Positions 3,305 through 4,275 of a stretch of DNA of 64,000 nucleotides are shown here, piece by piece. Position 1 is the stretch's first letter, and every line of letters starts with the position of its first letter. Made by a program: the position numbers and the translations under genes. The DNA comes from Escherichia coli (GTDB lineage Bacteria; Pseudomonadota; Gammaproteobacteria; Enterobacterales; Enterobacteriaceae). Below the pieces are notes generated by a model. The model was given only the letters and a program-made list of their open reading frames with translations, ran no database searches and was not told where the DNA came from. The stretch lies in assembly GCF_003334305.1 (NCBI RefSeq), contig NZ_QOWS01000011.1. One strand, written 5' to 3'.

Positions 3305-3661
3305 TAACAGGGGGGTATCTATAATTTGTTGCACAGGACAAATATATCTGGCTTCTGTACAGAGTCTTAAATTTTGACCATAAATAAAACCGTCCCTGTC
3401 AAGCATGCATAGTTTATCAAGTAGGTCTCCCACAAACTGCCTGAATTTTATTTTTCCATTAAAAGTTTGTATCTTCTTAAGTATCACAGGAGACTGGAAA
3501 TAGACCGATAGTAGGATGTTGCCACTCAAGGCATGACGATAAATATCGCTAGGAGTAATTTTTTGTTTTATGGCTTTGGTAGTGATCTCAACTGCTTCCG
3601 TTATAGTGACCCATGTTGACATATAATGAGTTATAAGCAATGGCTGATATTTTTTTGACAT
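2912..3661 (-). CDS. Hypothetical chimeric ORF: 119-codon AT-rich orphan N-terminus fused in frame to a yeeJ N-proximal fragment
   Basis: ATG at 3661 is preceded by AAGGAGA 7 nt upstream. The first 119 codons (MSKKYQPLLITHYMSTWVTITEAVEIT...) are AT-rich with no recognisable signal peptide; from about 3304 the frame runs into yeeJ-like sequence. Expression and function unknown. Confidence 0.3.
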   Translation of the reverse strand: MSKKYQPLLITHYMSTWVTITEAVEITTKAIKQKITPSDIYRHALSGNILLSVYFQSPVILKKIQTFNGKIKFRQFVGDLLDKLCMLDRDGFIYGQNLRLCTEARYICPVQQIIDTPLLRKLNQFRTFVRNVRPGDELDVQAQVSEKNLTPPPGNSSGNLEQQIASTSQLIGSLLAEDMNSEQAANIARGWASSQASGVMTDWLSRFGTARITLGVDEDFSLKNSRDGNPRKWRFDATNSELCAERHEC

Positions 3662-4275
3662 AATATTATCTCCTTCTACACAACAATTCGTTCCGTTAAG
3701 GAAAAAGATTGGTGTCACAAGTATTTATTTATGATTAATCAGAGGGTTTATGACAGAGAAAAGGATGTATATTTCTGAGTAAACATGTACAGGCCTATGG
3801 GGTGACTATTTAATGAGTAAATGCCGAATGATTTTCGGGGTGATGATTATAACTTGAGGAAAAATCCCAGCGTGGTTTGAGTAGTGTACCTGAGTGATAT
3901 TTGTGTTATGTATGCATTGATTGCAGCAGAATAAATATAGTTCAGGCTAGTATAGTTTATGGTAGCTATGAGAATATATAATCTATTTTACCTATAAAAT
4001 AATTTATATGTATGGGGTTGTTTTTTTAGGTTGTTTGTCTGTGCTTTTATATTCTGGAGATGTGCCTTGTATATAGGATTGTTTGTTGGTTGTATTTTTT
4101 AATGTTGCACTGTTGTGAATTTTTATTTTGATATGATTATTTCTTTAGTATAAGGAGAGAAAGGAACGAGAAAGTTAAATCTATTTATCCTAATCGCAAT
4201 TTCATTGTTTAAATAATCACTATGGATTAATATTTTTTGCGACTCTGCTGAGTTACTGGTTTTAACTAGTGGTGT

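Follow-up and report, generated by a model that had tools for sequence, protein, structure and literature searches.

The AT-rich kilobase downstream of fyuA in Escherichia coli is the leftover start of the HPI mobility module, joined to a decapitated yeeJ by a known deletion

A comparative analysis carried out on a stretch of 64,000 nucleotides from Escherichia coli (assembly GCF_003334305.1, contig NZ_QOWS01000011.1; hereafter the window) has revealed that the AT-rich kilobase located between the yeeJ remnants and fyuA (positions 3309-4311) is the leftover start of the HPI mobility module, which was joined to a decapitated yeeJ by a deletion that is already known. The segment is very probably the scar of a single ancestral illegitimate deletion, and nothing was found that contradicts this structural explanation. 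The first-pass annotation, which was made from the sequence alone, had described the segment as orphan DNA of unexplained origin. This description does not hold, since the segment corresponds to the conserved proximal end of the mobility region of ICE- and Yersinia-type HPIs. It is a conserved part of the island, with matches in 2,229 of the 5,426 complete E. coli genomes, and it is also an annotated one, as its open reading frame is a PGAP coding sequence.

The window starts with a family-9 glycosyltransferase gene (16-693, plus strand) located 3' of yeeJ, which is intact in the annotation of strain FDAARGOS_497 and is a pseudogene with an internal stop in K-12. Beyond it are found the yeeJ remnants (821 to about 3308, minus strand), the AT-rich segment and fyuA, the yersiniabactin receptor gene (4312-6333, minus strand), which is the last intact HPI gene and is followed by ybtE. 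The AT-rich character of the segment downstream of fyuA was confirmed by a GC content of 0.331 for 3309-4311 versus 0.585 in the HPI core. Within the segment, the values were 0.314 for the intergenic part (3662-4311) and 0.363 for the ORF fragment, to be compared with 0.565 for fyuA and 0.492 for the yeeJ remnant. The reported absence of a long ORF from 3720-4275 was also borne out, as no ORF of at least 30 aa was present on either strand between 3718 and 4312, and lowering the cut-off to 20 aa yielded just four ORFs of 22-26 aa. The only repeats detected in 3300-4320 were the hairpin of the fyuA terminator and short repeats at chance level. That the segment might be a mobile element of its own or a degenerate IS was considered and rejected, because neither terminal repeats nor transposase remnants were present and because the segment invariably adjoins fyuA, as well as the ICE backbone in its complete form.

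The source of the segment became apparent in comparisons with ICE-type HPIs (ICEEc1 of ECOR31, ICEKp1 and the island of strain GZM7, NZ_CP129279) and with the AT-rich part of the Y. pestis/pseudotuberculosis HPI. Nucleotide identity to these islands is about 99%, both in the intergenic region and in the initial 354 nt of a gene encoding a 308-aa protein, with the same RBS and the same start; in the alignment with GZM7, this level of identity extends from 3308/3309 to fyuA apart from a 223-bp gap. The gene, which codes for a conserved hypothetical protein, follows fyuA in the ICE- and Yersinia-type HPIs, and its codons 1-118 are those found at 3309-3661 (minus strand) in the window; these codons and the regulatory intergenic region are matched by the window at 98-100% identity. 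In the ICE-type island of GZM7 the same ORF runs to 308 aa (WP_048943210.1, annotated as 'hypothetical protein'), and it is followed by genes for an AlpA-family regulator, a small hypothetical protein, DUF2857 and TraR/DksA proteins, an Hha fragment and a VirB-type T4SS. The full-length gene lies at 5434-6360 of the extracted GZM7 locus, and at 8001 to about 8920 in three extracted homologue loci. Compared with the ICE-type HPI, the window lacks codons 119-308, the AlpA/xis gene (Hef-type excisionase), DUF2857, TraR, the VirB T4SS, attR and 223 bp of the upstream region. The 118 codons retained in the window show 3 amino acid differences with respect to GZM7 and 2 with respect to the cluster representative named from Y. 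pestis. Relative to this latter copy, both window-specific changes (V77 and I107) are non-synonymous and there are no synonymous ones.

The 308-aa protein shares 99% identity with a Y. pestis-named protein and has 344 homologues (E <=0.001) across Enterobacterales, typically of 300-316 aa and about 50% identical. In ICEs of K. oxytoca, Sodalis and Y. enterocolitica that carry unrelated cargo, the gene was always found in the same slot, the order being P4-type integrase, cargo, a gap of 400-450 bp, the gene, AlpA, DUF2857, TraR, SLT, TrbC, VirB3/4 and T4SS. As this place is kept in elements with unrelated cargo, the gene is the first one of a conserved ICE mobility backbone. In independent ICEs, GC values of 0.32-0.39 were obtained for the gene and for the DNA upstream of it; AT-richness is therefore native to both in unrelated ICEs, and no separate acquisition is needed to account for the window segment. 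An alignment of 44 sequences of the family contains 50 invariant columns, and most of the invariant residues fall in the C-terminal two thirds of the protein, which are missing from the window. The window copy has neither the full length of about 300-316 aa nor the conserved C-terminal half (P245-L246-S247-R248...W277-A278), and it does not lie upstream of the AlpA-DUF2857-TraR-VirB genes, which GZM7, K. oxytoca, Sodalis and Y. enterocolitica all have and which have been deleted here. With a coding capacity limited to residues 1-118, it counts as a gene fragment and not as a member of the family.

No Pfam, NCBIfam, PADLOC or significant PHROG match was obtained for the full 308-aa protein, and a PDB search with the 44-sequence profile produced only noise (calbindin, E >=0.07). 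An AlphaFold2 model built from the alignment reached a mean pLDDT of 73.8; for residues 15-230 the values lay at about 64-94 and mostly exceeded 80. In this model the cut at residue 118 is located past the strand formed by residues 113-115 and ahead of the helix formed by residues 121-133. A Foldseek search against AFDB50 retrieved uncharacterised proteins only, E. coli chimeras included, with distant relatives (13-20% identity) in Haemophilus, Pseudomonas, Vibrio and Nitrosospira. The family model displays a weak similarity to MerR-like winged-helix domains, and its comparison by hhalign with the neighbouring AlpA excisionases was not significant. The N-terminal part may thus be a DNA-binding domain, an idea taken only as a lead because the Foldseek relatives are uncharacterised and the AlpA profile comparison was not significant.

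The right-border deletion breakpoint was located at 3307-3309 by a three-way alignment of K-12 yeeJ, the window and GZM7, together with a blastn map. The sequence derives from yeeJ up to 3308 and from the ICE from 3308/3309 onwards, with one nucleotide (C) shared by both. On the ICE side, the breakpoint lies in codon 118 (CTG) of the 308-aa gene; the codon that follows, TTA, is chromosomal and corresponds to codon 93 of yeeJ (K-12 yeeJ nt 276). K-12 matches the query only at window positions 3273-3308, within yeeJ, and so do HPI-negative genomes. The deletion took the rest of the ICE/AT-rich region, including the excisionase and the T4SS, the right attachment repeat, the asnT-yeeJ intergenic region with the yeeJ promoter, and the signal peptide and first half of the LysM domain of YeeJ.

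The yeeJ piece adjoining the breakpoint (2986-3308, minus strand) corresponds to yeeJ nt 276-607 (codons 93-202), which encode the distal half of the LysM domain and a linker; codons 1-92 and the sequence upstream are lacking, and with them the signal peptide and the promoter. A 9-nt in-frame difference in the LysM-coding part at about 3277 (K-12 FARGFDNVRQGD, window FVRNVRPGD) is probably yeeJ allelic variation. At 2984-2986, a second junction connects yeeJ nt 607 to nt 4301, which corresponds to an internal yeeJ deletion of 3.7 kb (K-12 nt 608-4300) that eliminated the beta-barrel and many Ig repeats. Further Ig-repeat remnants are located at 821-2985, where about 282 nt have been lost between Ig repeats, with matches overlapping at 2511-2540, where a frameshift separates the ORFs 2815-2985 and 821-2779, and where the 3' end (845-908) has no match to K-12. 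Compared with YeeJ of K-12, the window has no promoter, no signal peptide, only half of the LysM domain and no beta-barrel, so that a signal peptide, a complete LysM domain, a 12-stranded beta-barrel and an Ig-like passenger are not found in one frame. The window yeeJ is a pseudogene because its passenger domain is deleted or frameshifted. The remainder of the gene is annotated by PGAP as a frameshifted partial pseudogene in FDAARGOS_497, and the NCBIfam inverse-autotransporter matches are partial and far under the cut-offs (98 bits versus 2400).

The asnT gene (tRNA-Asn, 34759-34834, minus strand) adjoins mtfA and serU as in K-12, and a 17-bp direct repeat of the asn-tRNA 3' end, which constitutes attL (34758-34774, minus strand), is found inside it. 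This was the sole copy of the repeat in the 64 kb when up to 2 mismatches were allowed, and the right-hand copy of CCAGTCAGAGGAGCCAA is absent. The window is collinear with FDAARGOS_497 (100% match), in which a P4-like integrase is annotated beside asnT. Downstream of fyuA, no conjugative or excision module is present in the window, and 1.0 kb of ICE remnant is directly followed by yeeJ, in contrast to GZM7, which has the module.

The AT-rich intergenic region (3662-4272, minus strand, 31% GC) is the native upstream region, and presumably the promoter region, of the ICE backbone gene, and this retained DNA would still carry the native ICE promoter. Sigma-70-like matches in 3662-4272 were weak only, and a promoter consensus scan returned 1 site, located inside the ORF, versus 4.2 expected from shuffled sequences; the fyuA hairpin was also missed by this consensus scan, owing to its T-run rule. 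This hairpin is the intrinsic terminator of fyuA (4273-4307, minus strand), formed by two perfect arms of 15 nt (4273-4287 and 4293-4307) with a 5-nt loop, and with T-runs on both strands. A scan of 3000-4500 with Rfam gave no match at E <=1. The intergenic region also contains the scar of a 223-bp deletion at 4016-4027, defined with respect to the ICE-type HPI of GZM7 and to a Yersinia-type contig. It was formed between imperfect direct repeats, which read, on the minus strand, AAAAAAAAC(A/C)ACCC. As GZM7 and the short contig encoding the Y. pestis-named protein both contain the 223-bp segment, the deletion in the window is the derived state; this contig, of just 1.6 kb, polarises the indel and provides no Yersinia gene context. 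The 223 bp were missing in 13 of the 13 sampled genomes that matched the whole query.

An ORF of 249 codons (2912-3661, minus strand; WP_000039788.1 in PGAP) crosses the breakpoint. Its product would consist of 118 aa of the ICE backbone protein, YeeJ residues 93-202 and 21 out-of-frame residues before the stop, because the 3.7-kb yeeJ deletion shifts the frame and the chimera ends 21 codons further on. Chimera residues 119-228 are 92% identical at the DNA level to codons 93-202 of K-12 yeeJ. The translation start had been correctly recognized in the first-pass annotation: a Shine-Dalgarno sequence, AAGGAGA (3675-3669, minus strand), is located 7 nt ahead of an ATG with its A at 3661, which is the start chosen by PGAP in the 100%-identical genome. 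Both RBS and ATG are conserved in the homologues of other ICEs, and the DNA further upstream is weakly conserved. It was likewise right that the chimera has no signal peptide and that the frame continues into an N-proximal yeeJ fragment, the in-frame junction being located at 3308. The first part is indeed not yeeJ, but its length is 118 codons and not 119, since L119 (TTA) is already yeeJ codon 93. That this part resembles nothing known is true for Pfam, NCBIfam, PHROGs and PADLOC, where the 117-aa fragment and the ICE-derived part of the 249-aa chimera had no match and the yeeJ part only partial inverse-autotransporter ones, but not beyond these collections, as hundreds of unannotated homologues exist. 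The name assigned by PGAP to the chimera in FDAARGOS_497, 'inverse autotransporter beta domain-containing protein', is misleading because no beta-barrel domain is contained in it. The lack of a signal peptide, the half LysM domain, the absence of a beta-barrel and the out-of-frame tail suggest that the chimera is a non-functional by-product, and a function for it is unlikely. If made, the product would be cytoplasmic, and its ICE-derived part would keep at most one small putative DNA-binding domain of the MerR-like winged-helix type.

The distribution of the region was determined with a megablast search of 5,426 complete E. coli genomes, with 3250-4330 as query and a coverage of at least 80%. 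Among the 2,229 genomes in which the region was present, the query spanning both junctions was contiguous in 2,044. The full-length 308-aa gene (3' part present, at least 99% identity) was found in 174 of the 5,426 genomes, and the agreement between 2,229 minus 174 and 2,044 indicates that essentially all truncated islands share both junctions; about 11 genomes have the HPI junction but not the second one. The common E. coli HPI is like the window in its insertion at asnT, the missing right 17-bp repeat, the deletion reaching yeeJ and the lack of a conjugation/excision module, with an identical junction in about 2,050 complete genomes and no structural difference. The 174 HPIs with an undeleted fyuA side (ICE- or Yersinia-type) are far above the single example, ECOR31, of the older literature. 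The search also returned five plasmid matches and three matches at 80-90% identity, and in E. coli N21 (NZ_CM165899.1, 2077569-2079425) an IS1A is annotated under the matched region, the match being in two pieces.

Two other explanations for the persistence of the segment were weighed. A domesticated chimera, in which the 249-aa fusion or its 118-aa winged-helix part would be produced from the retained ICE promoter as a putative cytoplasmic DNA-binding regulator of the HPI or neighbouring genes, is considered very improbable. The strong RBS and the ATG have been retained and are conserved, about 360 bp of native upstream DNA are intact, and the N-terminal region of the AlphaFold model is confident, with the cut at residue 118 falling between secondary-structure elements. 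In all genomes sampled the ORF is also unbroken and carries a CDS annotation, which could reflect selection; however, recent common ancestry predicts it equally in sequences that are at least 99% identical, and for this reason the open frame has no evidential weight. An in-frame fusion is expected by chance in 1 of 3 cases, and the changes V77 and I107, both non-synonymous and with no synonymous changes beside them, fit drift, in a tiny number of changes. Moreover, the region has been split in two in strain N21, with an IS1 annotated under it, the C-terminal two thirds of the ICE protein are gone with most of its invariant residues, and the tail of the chimera consists of half a LysM domain and out-of-frame residues. 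The co-option of the retained promoter together with the 118-aa fragment, with the chimera or a shorter product acting as regulator, would explain the open ORF in about 2,000 genomes, and we give it equally little credence.

Also very improbable is that the AT-rich stretch has been retained for the fyuA/ybt operon, either as a 3' UTR/terminator region or as an H-NS nucleation site or insulator against yeeJ read-through. A tract of 31% GC is of the kind preferred by H-NS, and this one is present in all HPI forms and includes a perfect bidirectional terminator at 4273-4307; nevertheless, plausibly just the first 40 bp or so, which contain this terminator, are needed by fyuA. The HPI has spread in its common E. 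coli form in spite of having lost 223 bp of this tract, and the Rfam search was negative. In addition, intact ICEs account for the tract fully, since it lies there ahead of the next gene as its upstream region, and ICEs with unrelated cargo have comparable AT-rich upstream regions of 400-450 bp.

The preferred reading, a scar left by a deletion, may be formulated as follows. The ancestral HPI would have been integrated at asnT, with an AT-rich mobility region downstream of fyuA that comprised a regulatory intergenic stretch of about 870 bp, the 308-aa gene and then the AlpA-type excisionase and other genes, with a VirB-type T4SS also carried by the ICE forms. One illegitimate recombination with a microhomology of 1 nt would then have deleted the DNA from codon 119 of the 308-aa gene through codon 92 of yeeJ, joining both genes, in frame by chance. 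The shared junction points to a single ancestral event, in agreement with the conclusion reached by Schubert et al. (2009, PLoS Pathog; PMC2606025), who described a 'unique deletion of the fyuA border' of the E. coli HPI and took it as evidence of a single ancestor and of spread by homologous recombination. According to the same work, ECOR31, the strain of ICEEc1 (Schubert et al. 2004, cited in PMC2606025), keeps a conjugative region of 30-35 kb after fyuA. The E. coli HPI has been described as an immobile truncated form (PMC8209727), an AT-rich sequence has been noted after the iron-uptake region in all HPI variants (PMC2801613, where EU681267 is given as the accession of ECOR31 DNA), pseudogenes flanking the HPI have been drawn as homologues of part of yeeJ (PMC10562709), and truncation of yeeJ occurs often and has been connected with the asnT/HPI site (Martinez-Gil et al. 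2017, PMC5595812). The border deletion is thus already known, and the breakpoint codons and the chimera are details of a known structure. In a literature search that included the locus tag, no published description of the nucleotide-level breakpoints (codon 118/codon 93), the chimera or the 223-bp upstream deletion was found, nor any statement on the exact codons joined, the in-frame chimera or its expression.

With the lesion marked by the junction, the yersiniabactin island lost its excisionase, transfer genes and attR and thereby became fixed at asnT in E. coli; the junction also inactivates the YeeJ adhesin in HPI-positive strains. It is, in addition, a marker indicating that nearly all E. 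coli HPIs come from one acquisition, followed by spread through homologous recombination (PMC2606025).
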